A program made the position numbers and the translations under genes. This document shows, piece after piece, positions 16,701-64,000 of a DNA stretch of 64,000 bases. The first letter of the stretch is position 1. Each line of letters starts with the position of its first letter. The stretch spans positions 704,001-768,000 of the forward strand of contig CM000431.1 in NCBI GenBank assembly GCA_000165345.1. Direction: 5' to 3'. The notes below the pieces were generated by a model. It searched no databases and had not been told where the DNA came from. It worked only from the letters and a program-made list of their open reading frames with translations.

Positions 16701-19700
16701 AAAATTGACTTAACTTTGCTAAATAGACTTTTAAGATTAATTACCGATCACAATATTGCTGACTATATCACAAGCAAAAATAATATTAATGTAACATATA
16801 AAGATATGAATTATTTGAACTCTTATGGAATTATTCGTGGTTTACAATTCTCTTCATTTGTTTGCCAGTATTATCTCTTGATTGTTGATTTGCTATTACT
16901 TGGATTGACTCGAGCAAATCAAATTGCAGGCTCGCCAAGTCATCCTAATGAGTTTTTAAAGTATTCAGATAAAAAGATAGAGCTATCTCATCCAATTAGA
17001 TTGTATTGCAGATTTGTTGATAAGTTATACATAATTATTAAACTTAGTAAACAAGAAATAAAAGAAATAGTTCAACGATACTTATCTGAAAACCCAGATT
17101 TTAGCAATAATCAAAATTTAATAGGATATAATAACAAGAAATGTTGGCCAAGAGAATGCCGCATGAGACTAGTTAAAAATGACGTAATTATAGGCAAAAG
17201 TGTCTATTGGGAGCTATCTAATCGACTTCCAAAGAGTATAACTACATTAGAATGGGAAAGATCATTTGTTTCAGTATATTCGAAAAGTAACCCAAATCTA
17301 TTATTTTCATTGGCTGGATTTTCAGTGAGAATACTTCCCACTTGCAGGATAGGAAAAAGAACTTTTGAAGCAAGCAATACATCTTTTATTGGTAATGAAG
17401 ATTCCCAATATTATACAAGAGAAAGTACATGGCAATTGAGTAATAATTTGACAAAGGAAATTACATCTTATGTCTTTTTAATGGTAGACGAGTCAGAAAT
17501 TAGAAATTTTGAAAATAGAGTTAGGCAGATTCTAATTACTTCAGGATCTGCAACATTTACTAAAATTGCGAACAAGTGGAATACGTGCTTGATTGGTCTA
17601 ATGACATATTTTAGAGAGGCAGTTATTTATACTGAAAAATTATTGGACTTACTTGTAAGGTGCGAAAACAAAATCCAAACTAGAATAAAAATAGGTCTTA
17701 ATTCAAAAATGCCAACAAGATTTCCGCCTGTAGTTTTCTATACACCTAAAGAACTTGGAGGACTTGGTATGCTATCAATGGGGCATATATTAATTCCACA
17801 AAGTGATTTACGCTTTACTAGACAAACTGATTTAGGAACAATTTCACATTTCAGAGCTGGAATGACTCATGACCAAGATGAGCATATACCAAATTTGTAT
17901 CGCTATATTCAAACATGGGAAAGCGAATTTATAGAATCTCAACGTGTCTGGCTAGAATATTCACTTAAAAGGCAGCAAGCTCAGTTGCAAAATAAGAGGC
18001 TCACACTAGAAGATATAGAAGATAGTTGGGATAAAGGAATTCCAAGGATAAATACTTTATTTCAAAAAGATAGGCATACTCTTGCTTATGATAAAGGTTG
18101 GAGAATTAGACAGATTTTTAGGCAGTTCCAGATATTAAGAAATAATCCTTTCTGGTGGACTCACCAGAAACATGACGGTAAGTTATGGAACTTAAGTAAC
18201 TATAGAACCGATATGATACAGGCATTGGGAGGGGTTGAAAGCATTTTAGAACATACATTATTTAAAGGCACATACTTTTCAACCTGGGAAGGACTTTTCT
18301 GGGAAAAATCATCGGGCTTTGAAGAGAGCATGAAATATAAAAAACTTACAAATGCACAAAGAAGTGGATTAAATCAAATTCCAAACCGTAGATTTACTTT
18401 GTGGTGGAGTCCTACAATTAATCGCGCAAACGTCTATATTGGTTTCCAAGTACAACTGGATTTAACCGGCATTTTTATGCATGGAAAACTTCCAACATTG
18501 AAGATTTCATTGATCCAGATTTTTAGGGCCCATTTATGGCAAAAAATACACGAGTCAATCGTGATGGATATTTGCCAGGTTTTAGATAATGAAGTTGATG
18601 CACTAGGGATTGAAATGGTACAAAAAGAAGCCATTCATCCTAGAAAAAGTTATAAAATGAATTCTTCTTGTGCGGATATTTTGTTATTATCATCTTATAA
18701 ATGGGTAGCAACGAATCCATCTCTTTTACTGGACAAAAAAGATGACATTTCTTCTAATTCATTAATTAACACTAATAAATTTTGGATCGATATTCAGTTG
18801 AGATGGGGGGATTATGATTCACATGATATTGAAAGGTATTGCCGTGCAAAGTTTCTCGATTATACTAGCGATGCAATGTCAATTTACCCTTCTCCTACAG
18901 GAGTATTGATTGCAGTTGACCTAGCTTATAACCTTTATTCTGCATATGGAAATTGGATTCCAGGTCTTAAGGAATTAATTCAGAAAGCTATGGCAAAAAT
19001 TATGAAATCAAATCCTGCATTGTATGTTTTAAGGGAAAGAATAAGGAAAGGACTTCAGCTATATTGCTCTGAGCCTACTGAACCATATTTAAATAGCCAA
19101 AATTATAATGAACTGTTTAGCAACCAGACTACTTGGTTTGTAGATGATACAAATGTATATAGAGTTTCAATACATAAAACATTTGAAGGGAACCTAACTA
19201 CAAAACCAGTAAATGGCTGTATATTGATACTTAACCCATGCAATGGAAAGCTATTTATGAAAGTAATACACACCTCTGTTTGGGCTGGCCAAAAAAGACT
19301 TTCACAATTAGCCAAATGGAAGACGGCAGAAGAAGTTGTTGCGCTTATCCGCTCTTTACCTATTGAGGAACAACCAAAACAGGTAATAGTTACAAGAAAG
19401 GGTATGCTAGATCCTCTAGAAGTTCACTTACTTGATTTTCCCAATATTGTCATTAAAGGTTCAGATCTAAGCCTTCCGTTTCAGGCACTCCTCAAGATAG
19501 AAAAATTTGGAGATTTAGTACTTAAGTCAACACAACCATCAATGGTACTATTTTCCCTATATGATGATTGGCTTAAAACAATTTCTCCATTTACAGCATT
19601 TAGCAGATTAGTATTAATTTTAAGGTCAATGCATATTAACCCCGAAAGAACAAAGGTGATTCTTAAACCAAATAAAAATATTATTACAATGCATAATCAT

Positions 19701-23777: not shown

Positions 23778-23869
23778 TAGATTATTAAAACATTTAAGGC
23801 AGCGCGGTAATTCAAATTAAGCTTACATTCAAACTTTGGTTCCAAAGTTTTAATTTAAAACATGAAATA

Positions 23870-37337: not shown

Positions 37338-37380
37338 ATAAATAAATAAATAAATGTATATGTACATTTATTTATTTATA
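37338..37380. repeat. (AAATA)n microsatellite forming an imperfect ~17-bp-arm inverted repeat (ataaataaataaatgta / tacatttatttatttat).
   Basis: Seen at 37331-37380 in the 420-bp divergent spacer between the 2,692-aa gene and the AP2 gene. Confidence 0.6.
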
Positions 37381-37481
37381 GGATTCGGCTAAACTTGATA
37401 GCAAGTAATAAATATTTCAAGTATGTATAATTTCAAGTAATAAATTATTCGCCATGCCTTTTACATGTTAAATCTCTAAAT

Positions 37482-40400
37482 TTGTATTCAAATACAAATT
37501 TAACAGGCGTGATGAGAAATATAGATTTTTTTGAAATTTTTAAAAGATTGGATATTAATTATACAAATAAACAAGTAAATTCATGTTCAAGTATTAATTT
37601 AAAAAAAGACAGTATTCAACAAGAAGTTAATTCAAAAGAAAATCAACCACCTGAAAGTGGTGGATATAAACATCGTGAAAATGATGGAATATATTTAGAC
37701 ATTAACTTCAACTCTAACTCTATTGCACTCCAGCCATGTATCGCAATTAAAGAGAAATCATTCAGATTACCAATATTTGAATTGACGTATGATTTTCAAA
37801 TGCCTAATACTACATACCAAGTTAAACAAAACAGCAGGCTTTATGAAGAAATTTACTCATTAGTATATGCAAATTATTCAAATATCATAATTAATGAGAT
37901 TACTCCTTCGAGAAAAATAAAAATTTCTGAAACAAAACCTATTTTTGAAATCTCTGAAAAAGAAGGGAATCAATATTCTATATTTTGGGATGATGAAGAT
38001 ATCAAATCCAACTCATCAATTTTACTTGGTGAGTTTACTGGATTGCTGTATAATGACGAAAAAAAATACTATAACAAGTATTCTTTCAAATTGCCCAATG
38101 TTTCAAATGAAGAGTTAAGTGTTATTTTGGATGCGTCTCATTACTGTAATGAATTTGCTTTTCTAAAACATTGTAGGCTCCCCTTTCCATTCGATGATCA
38201 AAGAATAAGACCAAACACTCAGTTACAGTGGTTATTTATTGATAAATGGCCACATCTTGTTGTATTAACTATTCCTGGAATCGAAATTAAACAAGGCGAT
38301 GAACTTGTTGTCGATTTTGGGAACAATTATCATATGTATTACGTAAATAGTTTGAAAACAATATTTAAAAACATCATCAAAATTAAAGCGGAGAATACGC
38401 AAATTTTCCAAATTTGCACTGTATGTAGACTTGAACTAGAGAAAAGCATTATTGAATGTAAAAAGTGTATAATTTGCCGTGAATACATACATGATAAGTG
38501 TGGTTATTATTATAAAAACAGTGGAAACTCGGTTTGTTGTACTACTTGTTTAAAAAAATCTTTTAATATTATCTTTGGCATTAATAAAAAATTTGATTAT
38601 CCCTTCAGCGGAACAAATAATTCGAGTAAGGATTCAATTATTAGTATACTAAAAATTTATGATGGGGATGCATGCGAAGAATGTTTATCATTGTTTCGTA
38701 AAAAAGACTTGGAATTAGAAAGATGTAAGTCTGCATTCTTTTGTAAACTACTCCATGAATTTTATCAGGTAGATAAACACCCTGATAATATTGACTCTTT
38801 TTATGCAGAATATAATTCCAAAAACGAGACAGAACCAAAGTCAAGCATTAATATGGACATTAAAGCCCTTGAAAATATTTATTATATTTTTGAAAGACTA
38901 GTGAAATACTTAAAGGATTTTTATGATGAAAACAGTGTTTGCGAAAGATTAAAATTTGAATCATATTTTTCCCAAGATAATTATGTTGGTTATTCAAACC
39001 GTCAATCAAAATGTTTATTTCCAGATTCGTTAATCTACGAAACATGGGGAAAGTCGAAATGGAAAGATTTTATTTTTTGGGATCAGGCAAAAAATTCTTG
39101 GGTCGGATTACTAAGACCAAATGGGATATTTTCAAGATTCGATTGCTGTAATAAATATCCAACTATAATTGAAAGTTTTTATGAAACAGAAAAGTGGGTA
39201 GAACAGAGAATAAGCGAAACTACAATTCCAAAGAATTTGATTTCTGCAATATTGAATAATTCTGATAAAGGTTCCAATTGTAATGAAAAAGACTATTCTA
39301 AAAGTCAAGAAGATATTGTTTCACATACTTATTACCACTCGCCGTATTTACCTACTGATCTAGCATCACACCCAGACTTCAAAATATTCAGCAATGAAAA
39401 TGGAAACAAGTATCAAGGTAATTTACCTCCAGTCAACGAAACTAATAATCTATTTTCAATGAATGATAATCAGTTATTGAATGGAAAACTCAAGAACGCA
39501 AATGCTACTCATAGTGTTGAATCAGAATTGTTCTCATTTTCAAATTCGCCTGAATTTTTATTAAATGATATTAGACCACGTGTTTCTACCACAGGTTATA
39601 TTCAATGCTGTTCGCCAGTCAACAGAAAACGTAGAATAAGGTCAACTCTCCCCTTAACTTCGAATGCTGCAAAATGCCCAACTGAATGGAGAGTAAGAGG
39701 GATCACGTGGCATGCAGAAAGAAAAGCATTTATTGTACCATATAGAAGAGATAAAGATGGTGGGCTTACTTCAACAACTTTTGGTGCAATGAAGTATGGA
39801 AGCCCTTTGACTGCATTTTTAAAAGCTTTAGAATTTAGGGAAAATTATTTAAAGGAGCAGGCGACAAAGTTACCAGAAGAAATAAAGCAGCCAAGTGTTA
39901 TTTGTGATCAAGCATTATTAATTAGAAATTTACCAAATATAATTTGGGATTCGAACAAACTTGTATGGAGAGCTCTTGCAGATGAGGAACTCCTATGCAA
40001 TAATAACTTAACACATAAATTAACTTTTTATACACAAGATATTGAAATAAACGCAATGCCTTATGGAGCAAGAATTGCATATGAAATAGCCGAAGTTTGC
40101 TATATTCGTAGAAAAGCATTACTTCTTAACTCAAAGGTAAATACTATAAAAAATTCATCTGTAAGCCGTATAAGAAATAAGAGTAATTCATTAGAGGGTC
40201 ATGGAGACGAGTACCAATTGATATTAGAGGATCAAAACCATTTATTATTACCTAAAAATTCACAAATGGATATTTCAAACTCGCAAAGCTCTTGTTTCAA
40301 ACAAATCAGGTTGAAAATTATTTTTCCAAATGGAGAGGAAGTTATTAGAAGTGACTTGATTGCATGGCATTTTAGGAGTAATTCATGGATAATTACCAAT

Positions 40401-57773: not shown

Positions 57774-58847
57774 CTAATTTATGGGTTTATTTTGTATTGA
57801 AAATGATTCAGCAGAAAAAATACCGTCTTCTGTAACAATTGCGTTTATGAACTTGGGGGGGATTACGTCGTAGCAAGGGATAAATGTAGCTATTTGCGGT
57901 TTAGGTAAACTTTCCGAGTTTTCTGGAACATATTGGAGGTTATCAGATATGCCTTGTTCAACGACTTCGTTGAAAACTGTTGAATACTCAAAGTAATTCT
58001 TTTCGCATAGTTTATATGATTCTGAAACGATCATTACAGGAATGTGGTGTATATTTGCAAGCATTGCAACAAGTGATGATCCAGAACGATTCATTACATA
58101 TCCATTAGAAAATATTGCACAAGAACCAATAATTACTTTGGTTGCGTACCTCAAATGGTAGGCCAAACAATTAAGTAATGTATAGGTTATTTTTATCCCC
58201 TTTAGAGATAGTTTTTTAGCAATGTCTTGACTACTGGAATCAAGGTTGTTCTTTGAATCAACGACAATTAGTTGAAAGTTCTTGTTCATTTCTGCAGCCT
58301 TAAATAATGATTTGATTACAGAGCTAGAATTGGAATATGTAACTATTACATCGCCGTCAGTAATATATTTGTTTGAAACTAAATATGAAATTCTTTCACA
58401 TGCGTTCACAATTCTTTGATAAATATAAGTTTTTATACTAGAAATTAGTTGGTTTATTATTTCATTTGGTGGGAGAGATGGATTAATTTTGCATATTTGT
58501 TTTTTTAGCCATTTAATCACGTTCCCCATCGCAATGTTATGTTGTCTCTGCGATGTTATATATGAGATATGCACGTCTAAAACCATCTTTAAATGCTTTT
58601 CAATACTTTTGTATGGAGGACAGTAATAATCCTCAAGCATTTGCCCAATGGCAATTAGCAGGCATTTACTCCTCATATTTGTACCAACAATTTTCCTGTC
58701 TTTCATTCTCATTCCCAATCTCAAAATAGCAGGATGGATTTTAGACTGATCCAGTATCGAAATAAAAGAGTGTGAAATGGAATTCCTACCGAAGTATGGG
58801 CATATAGGACAATTAAATATGTTTTGTACAACATTTTTTTTCTCCAT
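57774..58847 (-). CDS. Translation initiation factor eIF2B subunit (alpha/beta/delta family; beta/delta-like regulatory subunit).
   Basis: N-terminal helical block IHPAILRLGMRMKDRKIVGTNMRSKCLLIAIGQMLEDYY (eIF2B-delta-like IHPAV.RLG…I.GSNARC.A.L…I.DY). IF-2B Rossmann core GDVIVTYSNSSSVIKSLFKAAEMNKNFQLIVVDS…GIKITYTLLNCLAYHLRYATKVIIGSCAIFSNGYVMNRSGSSLVAMLANIHHIPVMIVSESYKL… C-terminal …PCYDVIPPKFINAIVTEDGIF. Confidence 0.75.
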   Translation of the reverse strand: MEKKNVVQNIFNCPICPYFGRNSISHSFISILDQSKIHPAILRLGMRMKDRKIVGTNMRSKCLLIAIGQMLEDYYCPPYKSIEKHLKMVLDVHISYITSQRQHNIAMGNVIKWLKKQICKINPSLPPNEIINQLISSIKTYIYQRIVNACERISYLVSNKYITDGDVIVTYSNSSSVIKSLFKAAEMNKNFQLIVVDSKNNLDSSSQDIAKKLSLKGIKITYTLLNCLAYHLRYATKVIIGSCAIFSNGYVMNRSGSSLVAMLANIHHIPVMIVSESYKLCEKNYFEYSTVFNEVVEQGISDNLQYVPENSESLPKPQIATFIPCYDVIPPKFINAIVTEDGIFSAESFSIQNKPIN

Positions 58848-59046
58848 TATATTAAAAACCTAGTAAATACTAAAAAAAAATTGCGCCCAAATAAATCGTA
58901 CTTAACTTTTATTAACAGAGCTGACATATATTTCGATTTATAGGCCAGCATTTACTGTTGGATATAGTTTTAGCAACAAAATCAAATAAAATTACCCTCC
59001 AATAAATTTACTCAATCCTTTTAGATTTGAGTGGATTTCAAAATAT

Positions 59047-60765
59047 TTATATATTGCTTTCTGTTTTTCCATAGGCAATTCTTTTTAAATTGTCAGTAGT
59101 ACTCTTGACACGTTGACCCACGCCGATCACCGTGTTTTCCATATTCAAGTTTGCGTCATTACCTGATTCTGAGTCACTGGGGTATGATATAAATGGATAT
59201 GTTCTTTTTTGTAATGCTGGCGTTGTAAGACATAATTCTTGCGAACGATGAAGGAGAAGCCCTTCAGATCCAACGTCGTAATCATTTGAGGGAATAATAG
59301 TCCCTGATTGTGCAGGTTGAGAGTTTGACATTCTATTTTGTTTATGGACTATTGACAGCCTTTTAACCATATCGATTGTACCTAAAATATCAAAACTGTT
59401 GGAAGGGGTAATTGAAGTAGAAGATGACGTGCTCATAAGAGAATCAACCATGTATGCATTTATTCTATCTTTTCCCCTCAGTGTATTTGTAGCATACTTT
59501 GACCTTAGCATTTGTAGATGCTTTTTTGGGACGTTGATGCCTAAATGGTGAATAAACGGAAAGTCTCGAATTAAAATCTCTGGATGAAAATCTGCAATTT
59601 CTTCGTATACCTTATTCTGTAACAGTCTCTTTGTTGGCTCAAAGTTGTCGAAAGACCAATCAATAGAATCAGTAGTGTTGGAATCCAATGAGATTAATTC
59701 TGGTTCAATAGAGTTATTTGATTTAAACTGAATGTTATGAGCACTAGATGATTTTGGAGAGTCGTACCCTGAGTTAATATTAATTCCATTGAAATATGGA
59801 TGCGATAGAGCCTCTTCAGCTGTTATTCGCTTTTTTGGATTAAAGCTTAGCATTTTTTCAATAAGGTCAATAGCTTCAGGGCAATTAAATCCAGGGAATA
59901 AAGTTGAAATATGCCTACCCTTATAGTTTGGAAGCGTGTCTAAGTACTTTCTCGCATTCTCGGTACTCCCCTTGTAAGGAAGCCAGGAATCTAAGTCATC
60001 TCTGCTTGGGGTACCCAAACAAGAAATAATAGCTTTAAGTTGATCTAGATGGTCATGACCAGCAAACAAAGCACTCCTTTTAATTAATTCAGCAAAAATA
60101 CAGCCTGCACTCCATATATCCACAGCTTTATCGTATCTATTTACACACAAAATTATTTCGGGTGCCCTGTACCATCTCGTAACTACATAATCTGTTAATT
60201 CGTCCTTGCTTTTATCAATATCACAGACATTTCCTCTTGCTAAGCCAAAATCACAAATCTTTAAATCACATGATAAGTTTACAAGGATATTTGATGGCTT
60301 CAGATCACGGTGTATAATATTTACCTTATGTAGGTAAGATAATCCTCTCAAAATTTGATACATAAAATATTGTATATGCTCATTTGTCAGTGTCTGTTTA
60401 CTATATATCACACGGTGCAAATCTGTCTCCATTAACTGAGTAACAATATATATATCTTCAAAATTCGGAGAGTCTGGAGGAAGAAGATCAATAATACCCA
60501 AAATGTTTTCGTGTTGAAGCTGCCTTAAAAGCTTAATTTCTCTTAGAATTCTCTTTGCATCTATTAAGTCCTGAAATGCATCAAATATCTTCTTTACTGC
60601 AATATAAGATCCTCGAGATTTATCGTAAAATGAAACTACACATCCATAGGCACCACTTCCAACTTTTTTAATAAACTTGTAATGCTCGGGAACTGTGTAC
60701 GTGCTTCCATCTTCTACATTTACAGTAATATTTTTTGTGATTTTCATTATTTCATAGATTATCAA
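59047..60765 (-). CDS. Mitogen-activated protein kinase with TDY activation-loop motif and a ~220-aa C-terminal extension.
   Basis: GSGAYGCV Gly-loop, AVKKI, HRDLKPSNILVN, ICDFGLAR, activation loop DELTDYVVTRWYRAPEI (TDY at nt ~60185-60193), CDK/MAPK-type insert and the common docking region. Confidence 0.85.
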   Translation of the reverse strand: MIIYEIMKITKNITVNVEDGSTYTVPEHYKFIKKVGSGAYGCVVSFYDKSRGSYIAVKKIFDAFQDLIDAKRILREIKLLRQLQHENILGIIDLLPPDSPNFEDIYIVTQLMETDLHRVIYSKQTLTNEHIQYFMYQILRGLSYLHKVNIIHRDLKPSNILVNLSCDLKICDFGLARGNVCDIDKSKDELTDYVVTRWYRAPEIILCVNRYDKAVDIWSAGCIFAELIKRSALFAGHDHLDQLKAIISCLGTPSRDDLDSWLPYKGSTENARKYLDTLPNYKGRHISTLFPGFNCPEAIDLIEKMLSFNPKKRITAEEALSHPYFNGININSGYDSPKSSSAHNIQFKSNNSIEPELISLDSNTTDSIDWSFDNFEPTKRLLQNKVYEEIADFHPEILIRDFPFIHHLGINVPKKHLQMLRSKYATNTLRGKDRINAYMVDSLMSTSSSTSITPSNSFDILGTIDMVKRLSIVHKQNRMSNSQPAQSGTIIPSNDYDVGSEGLLLHRSQELCLTTPALQKRTYPFISYPSDSESGNDANLNMENTVIGVGQRVKSTTDNLKRIAYGKTESNI

Positions 60766-60829
60766 AATAATCTACATTACGAATTTATAATCTTACGGCC
60801 TTTTAGTGGTACATTTCAATATTAATAAT

Positions 60830-60850
60830 CCCACATGTTAAACATGTGGG
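60830..60850. promoter_or_regulatory. Perfect 21-nt palindrome CCCACATGTT-A-AACATGTGGG in the MAPK/PKA divergent promoter.
   Basis: Read directly: 10-nt arms are exact reverse complements around a central A. Contains two CACATG/CATGTG E-box-like cores. Confidence 0.45.
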
Positions 60851-61098
60851 CATTTTACCGCCTTAGCTACGGCACGACGTTCTTTGAGTGGAAATTATGA
60901 AGTTACAAAAAATTTACAACCAAATATTCATTGAAAAATTTATTAAAGGAGTTGAAAGTGTGTCGCCAATTACAAGTTAATAAAATGAATTTGAATGGTA
61001 AAAATTTAATTGATACATATTTTTAGCGAATAAGCAATAGTATATAGAGCTTCTAGATTTAATTTTTTTGTATTGCAATTACAAATTTGAATAATCAT

Positions 61099-61128
61099 GG
61101 CGCCCTAAGCGCCTATGTTCATGCATGA
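61099..61128. promoter_or_regulatory. GGCGCC…GCGCC (E2F-like) plus adjacent CATGCATG about 170-200 bp upstream of the PKA-C start.
   Basis: ggcgccctaagcgcctatgttcatgcatga read directly at 61099-61128. Confidence 0.35.
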
Positions 61129-61297
61129 CAGAAAAATCAGCGAGTGTAGACGGAGTGTGCAAAGCGAATTAATGTCTTAGTCTATAGTGTTGTATCTAAA
61201 GCCGTGCTCTCGCTCATATTTTTATAGCTATACACATACTTCGGTCCCAGACAATAATTATATTATATTTTTTGCTTAGTACCGTAGGGGACTTAAT

Positions 61298-62500
61298 TTG
61301 GTATTATTCAAATTATTACGAATGGATGGAATTTGGAAAAGACTTGTTTCTGGAGGGAAGAATCACTCTTCAAAAGAGGGCGGCAATAGTCAGAAAAATG
61401 CAGTTGCTGCTAACAATCGGACATGTGAAAATGGCCGAAGTTTAGATTTTAATACCAATAATAAGTCCCACAATAATCCAAATAATGACACCCGTTATCC
61501 TGCTACTTCAAACATGAACAAGCATGACACGGATATATCAGGGAATAACCAGAAAAAATATAGCATCGACGATTTTCAGCTTATTAGAACATTAGGAACA
61601 GGCTCGTTCGGAAGAGTTTTCTTATCTAAGCACAAGGAAGATAATAGCATTTATGCAATAAAAAGACTTAAAAAGAGTGTGGTTATTCGGCAAAAGCAGG
61701 TGGACCATATTACAAATGAAAAAGCGATTCTTTCAAGAATTAAACATCCATTTTTAGTTAGAATGTTTGGAACATTTAAAGATGACCGATATTTATACAT
61801 TATGATGGAATTTGTTATAGGGGGAGAGTTTTTCACATACCTAAGAAGGTGTAGGCACTTTGACAATGAAACTTCGAGGTTTTATGCTGCGCAAGTCGTG
61901 TTAATGTTTGAATATTTGCACGGAAAAAACATTATATATAGAGATCTTAAACCAGAAAATATTCTAATTGACAAAGATGGGTATTTGAAGCTAACTGATT
62001 TTGGATTTGCAAAGGCAATCGAATATAGGACGTTTACACTTTGTGGGACGCCTGAATATATCGCTCCAGAAGTTCTTTTAAACAAGGGCCATGGAAAGCC
62101 GGTTGATTGGTGGACGCTGGGCATATTGATATATGAAATGGTTGTAGGCTTTCCCCCTTTTTATGATGATGAACCTATGGGTATCTATCAAAAAATTCTA
62201 GCGGGTAAGATTTTTTTCCCTAAGTATTTTGACAAAAATTGTAAAAGTTTGGTAAAAAGACTACTTACTCCGGATTTAACAAAAAGATATGGTAACCTCA
62301 AAGGTGGTGTTAGTGATATAAAACTACACAAGTGGTTTTATAATTATGACTTTAATTCTTTGATATCAAGGAAAGTTGACCCCCCGTATATTCCTAAGGT
62401 CAACTCGTATGATGATTCATCGAATTTTGAAGAATATCCAGATAGCCATGAACAACCTACTACTGTTACAGGTAATGCTGATCCATTCGTTGACTGGTAG
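61298..62500 (+). CDS. PKAC: cAMP-dependent protein kinase catalytic subunit (PKA-C) with a ~90-aa N-terminal extension.
   Basis: Collinear with PKA-C: FQLIRTLGTGSFGRVFL…YAIKRLKK…ITNEKAIL…PFLVRMFGTFKD.RYLYIMMEFV.GGE.F..LRR…YRDLKPENILID.DGY.KLTDFGFAK…TLCGTPEYIAPEVLL.KGHGK.VDWW.LGILIYEM..G.PPF…YQKIL.GK..FP, then the AGC C-tail (…FNSLISRKVDPPYIPKV…FEEY). Confidence 0.9.
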   Translation: MVLFKLLRMDGIWKRLVSGGKNHSSKEGGNSQKNAVAANNRTCENGRSLDFNTNNKSHNNPNNDTRYPATSNMNKHDTDISGNNQKKYSIDDFQLIRTLGTGSFGRVFLSKHKEDNSIYAIKRLKKSVVIRQKQVDHITNEKAILSRIKHPFLVRMFGTFKDDRYLYIMMEFVIGGEFFTYLRRCRHFDNETSRFYAAQVVLMFEYLHGKNIIYRDLKPENILIDKDGYLKLTDFGFAKAIEYRTFTLCGTPEYIAPEVLLNKGHGKPVDWWTLGILIYEMVVGFPPFYDDEPMGIYQKILAGKIFFPKYFDKNCKSLVKRLLTPDLTKRYGNLKGGVSDIKLHKWFYNYDFNSLISRKVDPPYIPKVNSYDDSSNFEEYPDSHEQPTTVTGNADPFVDW

Positions 62501-62668
62501 TTTAACATATACATAGCTTAATCCTGCCCAAATAGTTATGTCTTTCTAGTTATTTCTTTCAATTGCAGCACACTTGACTTAGAAGATATTGTAAATGACT
62601 GTGTTGTAATATTCCATTAGTATTTAAATGATATTTTATTTTTTACAGTGTTTATAATGCGTAAATAA

Positions 62669-63628
62669 TCAATTATCAACAAAGCAGTTTCCCTGACTAT
62701 ATTTTAGGCTAACGTGATCGCTATACTCGCACGGAGTACAGGAAGAAAATATGCTATTTGTAAGCAGGTTTCCTTTATTGGGGTAAGCTTTATTATCTTT
62801 TAAGTTATGCTCAAAACATTCTTCAATACAGAAGCACTCTCTTTCAGAATTTTCTGGAAAGAAATCTTTAAATTCATTACTTTGATTCTCACTATGCTTT
62901 ATGAAATAATTCTCATCAATTATTTCTCGAGAAAGCGTGTTGTCAACAATTTTATGGAATGAATTGGACTCAATGTTATCGTATCTTTCTTCAAACTCTA
63001 TCTCTTGATGACTATTCCCTAAACAGTTACAAGTCAGTTTATTTGGTTCATTAAAAATAGGTGATTCAACAGTTTTTTCAACATACCTCCTTGGTCCATA
63101 AGAACTTGAAGAAGGCAATACGGAACGTCTATTAGAAGGATATTCAGCCTGAATAGTGCAGAAAGAAGCAGATGAGCCCGAACAAATAGGTGTAATACAA
63201 TTCCCTGCTAACGTTGGGTGTCTTAAATTTCCTTTAACTGAGCCATCAGCATTTATTGAACCTTGTAAATTTGGGCTTACTCCTATGTTGCTGCTTGCAC
63301 TGTAAAATTGATTATATTGGGGTTTTTGATTATTTGCGTTGTACGAGTATGCATTGTTATTATTATACTTTCTTTTGCTATATTTAGCTTTTTTCATTCT
63401 TCTTTTTTGTGATATACATCTTCCAGTAAGGAAAAAAGCTCTGCATGGATAAATACAGCACTTAAGACACGGAACCAAACATCCATACACAGGGTTTATA
63501 TCCTTAAATTCATCCCCATCTACTCCTTCAAATTCAAGTTGATCTTTTTTCACATTCTCCTTCCTGCACCCTCTAGGACTAATATTTTGACAAAACCTAC
63601 GTTCCTCTTCTTCACGTCTGATTGACAT
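62669..63628 (-). CDS. Hypothetical Cys-rich protein (319 aa).
   Basis: Uninterrupted ORF. N-terminal Cys cluster (FCQNISPRGC…YGCLVPCLKCCIYPCRAFFLTGRC), basic stretch (KRRMKKAKYSKRKY), Asn/Ser-rich middle. Confidence 0.45.
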   Translation of the reverse strand: MSIRREEEERRFCQNISPRGCRKENVKKDQLEFEGVDGDEFKDINPVYGCLVPCLKCCIYPCRAFFLTGRCISQKRRMKKAKYSKRKYNNNNAYSYNANNQKPQYNQFYSASSNIGVSPNLQGSINADGSVKGNLRHPTLAGNCITPICSGSSASFCTIQAEYPSNRRSVLPSSSSYGPRRYVEKTVESPIFNEPNKLTCNCLGNSHQEIEFEERYDNIESNSFHKIVDNTLSREIIDENYFIKHSENQSNEFKDFFPENSERECFCIEECFEHNLKDNKAYPNKGNLLTNSIFSSCTPCEYSDHVSLKYSQGNCFVDN

Positions 63629-63861
63629 ATTTTTTCAAGTAGACAAAAATAAAAGAATAAAATTCAATTAAGCTAAGAGATAATTAAACTTTTGTAGAGG
63701 TCTACCTAGTCCCATTTTTCTAAAATTGTTTTGTAGAATTATTATAACAAAGTTTCCAAAGTGCCCGGACCTCTGGTTTGAATAAGCTGGAGTAATGATG
63801 GATGCAAATATAATATATTTGTCTATAATTGGAACATTTAAAGAATTAAATATTTGACTAT

Positions 63862-64000
63862 TTATTCGTCTTCGTCGTCATCTTCAATATCATCATCATC
63901 ACCCTCACCGCTATTAGAGTTTAGCCCAATTTCTTGGTTTATTAGGCCGGGAATCATCCACTGCTTGCTGTTTTCAATTTCAATTGCACGTTTTAATGCA
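63862..64000 (-). CDS. C-terminal end of a minus-strand gene that continues beyond the window, acidic tail.
   Basis: Reverse-complement frame is open from the window edge to the TAA at 63862-63864 (…ALKRAIEIENSKQWMIPGLINQEIGLNSNSGEGDDDDIEDDDEDE*). Confidence 0.35.
   Translation of the reverse strand, partial: ALKRAIEIENSKQWMIPGLINQEIGLNSNSGEGDDDDIEDDDEDE

Follow-up and report, generated by a model that had tools for sequence, protein, structure and literature searches.

In Cryptosporidium, apparently few cis-regulatory elements have been put to the test at an individual gene, and most of the motifs proposed for the genus come from over-representation statistics, among them the motif families enriched upstream of C. 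parvum genes (PMC3734150, Table 1). The G-box, written as G[T/C]GGGG or DTGTGGGG, is bound in vitro by the ApiAP2 domains of cgd8_810, cgd2_2990 and cgd1_3520 (PMC3734150, PMC4117751), and cgd1_3520 is reported to bind motifs of the TGCAT type as well as the G-box (PMC4117751). E2F motifs dominate open chromatin and promoters in Cryptosporidium (preprint 10.1101/2025.01.17.633476), and the transcription factor families discussed in a 2025 review of Cryptosporidium are ApiAP2, E2F/DP, Myb/SANT, C2H2 zinc fingers and bZIP. At the RNA level, translation can be controlled by hairpins in a cap-proximal or leader position, such as the iron-responsive element, which are conserved, short and stable stem-loops located near and upstream of a coding sequence.

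Here we report on a palindrome lying between two divergently oriented kinase genes of C. parvum, in a 64-kb stretch of chromosome 3 (64,000 nt, hereafter the window) with a G+C content of ~30%. An earlier reading made from the letters of this stretch alone (hereafter the sequence-only reading) had pointed out the palindrome and proposed it as a switch shared by the two genes, which code for a MAPK and for the catalytic subunit of PKA (PKA-C). In the literature, PKA-C is cgd3_3040, and the MAPK encoded on chromosome 3 goes by the identifier cgd3_3030. The Toxoplasma orthologue of the latter, MAPKL1, is a kinase that associates with the centrosome, governs its duplication and may serve as a target for bumped kinase inhibitors. 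The PKA-C protein encoded in the window is identical to that on the C. parvum records GCA_015245375.1 (CP044420.1) and GCA_048859185.1, and we infer from adjacency and annotation that the neighbouring MAPK gene is cgd3_3030 (hereafter MAPKL1). Judging from its conservation, the block that contains the palindrome is a real and strongly selected non-coding element that appears to be previously undescribed. On balance we lean towards regarding the palindrome as the core of a composite DNA cis-regulatory module in the proximal promoter of MAPKL1. With its compact and sharply bounded footprint of ~55 nt beside a cell-division kinase gene, the block offers a small mutable target for CRISPR reporters in C. 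parvum, and it raises the questions of how the timing of the kinase is set, which factor reads a motif found on no published list, and whether regulation operates on DNA or on RNA.

An exact palindrome between two kinase genes

Positions 60830-60850 of the window, CCCACATGTTAAACATGTGGG, form an exact odd palindrome of 10+1+10 nt (CCCACATGTT-A-AACATGTGGG), just as the sequence-only reading had it, with 10-nt arms around a central A. Folding of this segment as RNA reproduced the 9-bp stem closed by a 3-nt loop that had been proposed, and the two CACATG cores that had been noted were recovered as one per strand, at 60832 (+) and 60843 (-), each of them conforming to the E-box hexamer CANNTG.

In the window, ~13 different inverted repeats are perfect over arms of 9 nt or more, and nearly all of them consist of A and T only. 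First-order Markov simulations gave an expectation of 0.025 per 64 kb for inverted repeats that combine arms of 10 nt or more with five or more G:C pairs and a loop no longer than 10 nt, and ~3-4 repeats of the same G:C-rich class would arise by chance in the 9-Mb genome. By itself, the palindrome is mildly improbable and as such suggestive, not compelling. Apart from the palindrome, perfect inverted repeats with a moderate G+C content occur in the window only at 18149-18170 (TTTCTGGTG-GACT-CACCAGAAA) and at 23831-23850 (AAACTTTGG-TT-CCAAAGTTT). Two long A+T-rich perfect palindromes are found 100 bp apart at 37342-37379 and 37477-37502, and the arms measure 17 nt (ATAAATAAATAAATGTATATGTACATTTATTTATTTAT) in one and 12 nt (TAAATTTGTATTCAAATACAAATTTA) in the other.

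No second copy of the palindrome was detected in the 64-kb window with up to three mismatches allowed. Its 8-mer half-site, CCCACATG, is absent elsewhere in the 64 kb; the motif lies upstream of no other gene of the window and so does not count among the common promoter words. The orthologous site was also the only one recovered from the window and 14 fetched loci, whether by exact matching, by half-site counts or with a covariance model (R1) applied without filters, and a search of JGI metagenome contigs with the composite pattern returned no match.

Conservation across the genus Cryptosporidium

The orthologous locus was taken from 11 other Cryptosporidium species via the PKA-C protein cluster, which together with C. 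parvum makes 12 species: C. parvum, C. meleagridis, chipmunk genotype I, C. ubiquitum, C. canis, C. felis, C. bovis, C. xiaoi, C. ryanae, C. muris, C. andersoni and C. serpentis, the last three being gastric species and the deepest branch available. The order and orientation of the genes for IF-2B, MAPK, PKA-C, a protein of 260-320 aa and CRM1 are the same in all fetched species. In the alignment of the MAPK/PKA-C intergenic region, the two arms of the palindrome, TCCCACAT(G) and (C)ATGTGGG, are unchanged in all 12 species apart from the bracketed innermost base. The arms belong to a block of ~55 nt (Table 1) that surpasses every other part of the intergenic region in conservation and that contains invariant runs of 8, 7, 6 and 6 nt (counted over 10 aligned species, the other two being identical to relatives already in the alignment). 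At the same loci, invariant runs never exceed 2 nt in three other intergenic regions, and the longest one in the full-length PKA-C coding sequence is 8 nt. Only 8.4% of the columns at third codon positions of PKA-C are invariant, and the identity between C. parvum and C. muris at these positions is 43%; synonymous sites are saturated across the species compared, and the neighbouring intergenic DNA is unalignable.

This pattern indicates very strong purifying selection on the palindrome throughout the genus, which makes the palindrome almost certainly functional. Far from being non-conserved in related species, an outcome that the sequence-only reading had named as counting against its proposal, the arms are decisively kept in all 12 species. 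That it is a functionless product of chance we regard as next to impossible: the few G+C-rich palindromes expected per genome and the single copy in the window would suit an accident, but invariance in 12 species with saturated synonymous sites and unalignable surroundings would not.

Table 1. Features of the locus, in window coordinates unless a species locus is named
Feature	Position	Strand	Remarks
Whole conserved non-coding block	60826-60884		Conservation peak of the intergenic region
Left arm TCCCACATG	60829-60837		TCCCACAT invariant in 12/12 species; last G replaced by A only in C. felis
Spacer/loop TTAAA	60838-60842		Sequence and length vary
Right arm CATGTGGG	60843-60850		ATGTGGG invariant; first C replaced by T only in C. 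bovis and C. xiaoi
Box CCGCCT	60858-60863		Invariant; 7-8 nt past the palindrome; minus strand AGGCGG(G/T)
Box ACGGCACGACGTT	60869-60881		After a 5-nt spacer of fixed length and free sequence; GACGTT invariant
Spacer inversion compared	C. muris L011:2230-2253; C. andersoni/C. serpentis L010:2228-2251, L013:2230-2253
MAPK gene	59047-60747	-	566 aa; TDY activation loop; start codon 82 nt from the palindrome
PKA catalytic subunit gene (cgd3_3040)	61322-62500	+	392 aa; start codon 471 nt from the palindrome
PKA-C-proximal conserved module	61095-61320		Separate from the palindrome element; GGCGCC-CTAA-GCGCC, CATGCATGA, TAGACGGAGTGTGCA

Frozen arms and a free spacer

The spacer between the two 8-mers differs in length from 4 nt in C. 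felis to 5 nt in C. parvum, C. meleagridis and chipmunk genotype I, 6 nt in C. ubiquitum, C. canis, C. bovis, C. xiaoi and C. ryanae, and 8 nt in C. muris, C. andersoni and C. serpentis. Only the innermost position of the arms ever changes: on the left in C. felis, and on the right in C. bovis and C. xiaoi, the half-site reads CCCACATA instead of CCCACATG. The occurrence of an identical half-site change in either arm suggests that the palindrome may comprise two equivalent half-sites with a softer eighth position. The T at position 60829, which lies beside the left arm and outside the paired region, is invariant, and the third box follows the consensus A(C/A)G(G/A)CA(C/T)GACGTT across species.

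The palindrome of C. muris, CCCACATG-TTTATTTA-CATGTGGG, is the exact reverse complement of that of C. andersoni and C. serpentis (TAAATAAA), with identical flanks. A single minute inversion of the spacer accounts best for this difference, and having flipped as a unit the spacer is evidently free in both sequence and orientation. The inversion further suggests that the arms can pair as a hairpin or a cruciform in vivo, at least occasionally. In 1996 Kelchner and Wendel reportedly ascribed minute inversions in chloroplast DNA to hairpins formed between inverted repeats. The present case is like the minute inversions of non-coding chloroplast DNA in that the spacer is exactly reverse-complemented between sister species while arms and flanks are kept, and unlike them in that it concerns a nuclear locus of an apicomplexan; the comparison explains how the spacer evolved, not what the element does.

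The spacer inversion that separates C. muris from C. andersoni/C. serpentis would also be in keeping with a DNA-structural element, namely a cruciform or hairpin that forms at replication or transcription and serves as an origin, a boundary or a recombination site. We consider such a role improbable, because structure alone would freeze neither the arms nor the non-palindromic CCGCCT and GACGTT, and because any inverted repeat may give rise to such an inversion as a side effect of mutation.

Folding potential and known RNA families

The potential of the arms to pair is kept in every species: 99.2% of the cells are paired, compared with 25-55% when the partner columns are slid. The loop is free in length and sequence, which gives the element the classic look of a hairpin, and the minus strand of the C. 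parvum block folds stably (-22.2 kcal/mol, z = -3.5). The block could accordingly be pictured as an RNA element transcribed in the sense of MAPKL1, that is from the minus strand; it would then either open a long 5' leader or form a small RNA close to the promoter, a reading that we hold to be possible though unlikely. Such an RNA would present a hairpin of 8-10 bp (CCCACAUG/CAUGUGGG) preceded by a small UGCC/GGCG stem, and a protein bound to the hairpin would control the translation or the stability of the MAPKL1 message. Within the small stem only one change was seen, C to U, shared by the gastric species; it leaves a G-U pair if the minus strand is read but abolishes pairing on the plus strand, in agreement with this orientation. 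Novel small RNAs conserved across the genus are documented in Cryptosporidium (PMC9465071) and might include the block, and the UTRs of neighbouring genes frequently overlap in this genome.

Against an RNA hairpin stands first of all the lack of compensatory changes, which were seen at none of the 12 candidate pairs, 10 of which never vary. Invariance of this kind, with both arms frozen in sequence, is uninformative on pairing and shows that the sequence itself is constrained; a constraint on pairing only should have left covariation at this divergence, and since none was seen it is the primary sequence that is constrained. Hairpins recognised by proteins usually combine a conserved loop with a covarying stem, the opposite of what is found here. 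An A-C mismatch arises at the innermost pair in one lineage, C. felis or C. bovis, whichever strand is considered, and a leader beginning upstream of the block would hold at least five upstream AUGs in C. parvum. The block shares with iron-responsive elements and cap-proximal leader hairpins the features listed above, but the arrangement of the iron-responsive element is reversed, the stem being frozen in sequence and the loop free, and transcription of the block is itself hypothesised. A more specific version, in which the block would be an unclassified, genus-specific structured RNA (a leader riboregulator or a tiny promoter-proximal RNA) whose frozen stem is read sequence-specifically by a protein that gates the production of the centrosome-associated MAPKL1, seems to us rather doubtful; if true, it would be the first post-transcriptional cis-element defined in Cryptosporidium.

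Rfam gave no match at the block, either in positions 58000-64000 of the window (E≤10) or in four orthologous loci (E≤5), and neither C/D nor H/ACA nor Sm boxes were seen on inspection of the block. A tRNA was likewise absent from the window. An Sm-bearing snRNA (RAU(3-6)GR) was considered and rejected, the candidate CAUUUUAC being present only in C. parvum and C. meleagridis; the corresponding positions read CAAAUGC, CAUGUGC, CAUACAGC or UGGAGGCA in other species. The stretch CAUUUUACC, which had been noted earlier for its resemblance to an Sm site, thus lacks conservation outside these two species, and no snRNA or other Rfam family matches it. The upstream GGCCTTTTAGTGG, in which the sequence-only reading had looked for U5 loop 1 and seen no identity, is unconserved too and has no Rfam match, and a U5-like snRNA was rejected on account of this missing conservation.

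Coding readings of the block were likewise rejected, because its indels are not multiples of three and its invariant boxes fall in different frames between species. The plus-strand open reading frame MLNMWAFYRLSYGTTFFEWKL and the upstream open reading frames of the minus strand are all broken by spacer indels of this kind. A short MWD-x upstream open reading frame starting from the right arm is present in all species, with neither its length nor its end conserved. A leader intron (GTAAGA...TAG) was rejected by inspection, being confined to C. parvum and only 25 nt long.

Elsewhere in the window, positions 63696-63774 (+) gave a sub-threshold Rfam match to the C/D snoRNA snoR160 (28 bits against a gathering threshold of 42, E = 0.27). 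This segment has a 7-bp terminal inverted repeat (AGAGGTC…GACCTCT) and no clear C or D boxes, and the match is probably due to chance, because the surrounding intergenic region has no genus-wide invariant run longer than 2 nt.

Position of the block relative to the two kinase genes

The two start codons are separated by 574 bp (60748-61321), which corrects the figure of 530 bp given previously for the spacer. The distance from the block to the annotated MAPK start codon is 67-102 nt in all species, whereas that to the PKA-C start codon ranges from 464 to 749 nt. The PKA-C gene is preceded by a conserved module of its own (Table 1), which is kept in the eight intestinal-clade species aligned, with TAGACGGAGTGTGCA invariant in all eight, and is absent in the gastric species; the intergenic region of C. 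muris and C. andersoni is ~290 bp longer. This module contains an inverted pair of E2F-like GGCGCC/GCGCC cores at 61098-61112 and, in CATGCATGA, an AP2_1-like TGCATG core; the module is probably the promoter or the leader of PKA-C. Between the block and the PKA-C module lie ~200 nt of unconserved A+T-rich DNA. The supplement of PMC3734150 assigns cgd3_3030 to expression cluster 31 and cgd3_3040 to cluster 101.

These observations bear directly on the proposal that the palindrome acts as a bidirectional switch shared by MAPK and PKA-C, with its two E-boxes bound by a dimeric factor. The fit of CACATG to CANNTG is in its favour. However, the distance is fixed to the MAPK gene only, PKA-C has its own proximal module some 200 nt of unconserved DNA away, and the two genes fall into different expression clusters, so that the shared switch is unsupported. 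As for the E-box itself, the conserved unit TCCCACAT is longer than the hexamer and offset from it, the G of CACATG is precisely the position that varies, and bHLH proteins are not among the factor families of the 2025 review. We therefore find a shared switch of this type hard to credit.

Relation to known DNA motifs and a putative MAPKL1 promoter module

In line with the favoured reading of a DNA module at MAPKL1, several parts of the block resemble motif families described upstream of C. parvum genes. The arm ATGTGGG agrees with the G-box at 7 of the 8 positions of DTGTGGGG and, like the G-box, lies upstream of a gene; it falls short of an exact match, as only 5 of the 6 positions of G[T/C]GGGG agree and the last G is missing on both arms in all species, which read GTGGGC, GTGGGT or GTGGGA. 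The conserved unit also differs from the G-box in running 5' into CATG and in forming an inverted pair, an arrangement undescribed for the G-box. The inner part of the arm, [A/G]CATGT, fits the AP2_1-like Motif 7 (ACATGY), but the arm is not GCATGC (TGCATGCA being the other AP2_1-like form considered), and conservation is strongest at the CCCACA/TGTGGG end, not at the CATG core. Each arm (ACATGTGGGC or GCATGTGGGA) thus looks like a fusion of ACATGY with a G-box-like motif.

The second box was compared with E2F/DP sites (Motif 4, TTTGGCGGGAAV), taken as a core [C/G]GCGC[G/C] or GGCGGG with T/A-rich flanks. Every species reads AGGCGG on the minus strand, and in C. ubiquitum, chipmunk genotype I and C. 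canis the sequence GGCGGGAAA(A) corresponds to the canonical E2F form. By contrast, the sequence is GGCGGT in C. parvum, C. meleagridis and the gastric species, and the T/A flanks are unconserved around a fixed 6-nt core; of the 10 aligned species, six have GGCGGG and four, C. parvum among them, have GGCGGT, with an A-tract in only some of the species. In the third box, the ACGACG contained in ACGGCACGACGTT fits the published Motif 10 (RMGACG). While its parts resemble known families, the palindromic composite appears to match none of the published motif lists compared.

Four invariant boxes, TCCCACAT(G), (C)ATGTGGG, CCGCCT and A-G-CA-GACGTT, are held 67-102 nt from the MAPKL1 start. We favour their interpretation as a DNA module because the sequence itself, and not only its pairing, is extremely conserved, because the same half-site change is tolerated in either arm, because the invariant T at 60829 lies outside the paired region, because the boxes recall motif families enriched upstream of C. 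parvum genes, and because the block is non-coding and has no Rfam match; we assign the module to MAPKL1 because its position is tied to this gene and not to PKA-C. Frozen arms around a free loop are the pattern expected of two inverted copies of a DNA half-site. In the proposed mechanism, the two arms would be inverted copies of one half-site, [A/G]CATGTGGG, each read on double-stranded DNA by the same factor, acting either as two monomers or as a flexibly linked dimer or multi-domain protein. An ApiAP2 or a C2H2-type protein is a candidate for this factor. A second factor, plausibly E2F/DP, would bind AGGCGG(G/T) and a third one AACGTC(G/A)TG, and together these factors would set the timing of MAPKL1 transcription.

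Three observations run counter to a DNA module, one of them being that the motif is absent upstream of all other genes of the window. The spacing of the half-sites varies by 4 bp, which is awkward for a rigid dimeric factor and natural for the loop of a hairpin, so that independent monomers or a flexibly linked factor would be required. In addition, the half-site GTGGGC/T/A has no exact match to any published Cryptosporidium motif.

Upstream ATGs between the palindrome and the MAPK start codon number 1-3, against ~1.7 expected, and are not depleted. This weakly suggests that the stretch is mostly untranscribed or unscanned, which would place the palindrome upstream of the scanned leader. Two short conserved segments were observed in the same stretch. 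The first, at 60805-60816 (minus strand, about -67 from the MAPK ATG), reads GAAATG(T/G)ACCAC / GAATGTACCAAAA with a GTAC core and is found in the C. parvum group and in C. bovis and C. ryanae. The second, CGTAATGTAGAT at 60771-60782 (about -30 from the MAPK ATG), is common to the species from C. parvum to C. felis and has a one-codon ATG-TAG mini-ORF inside it.
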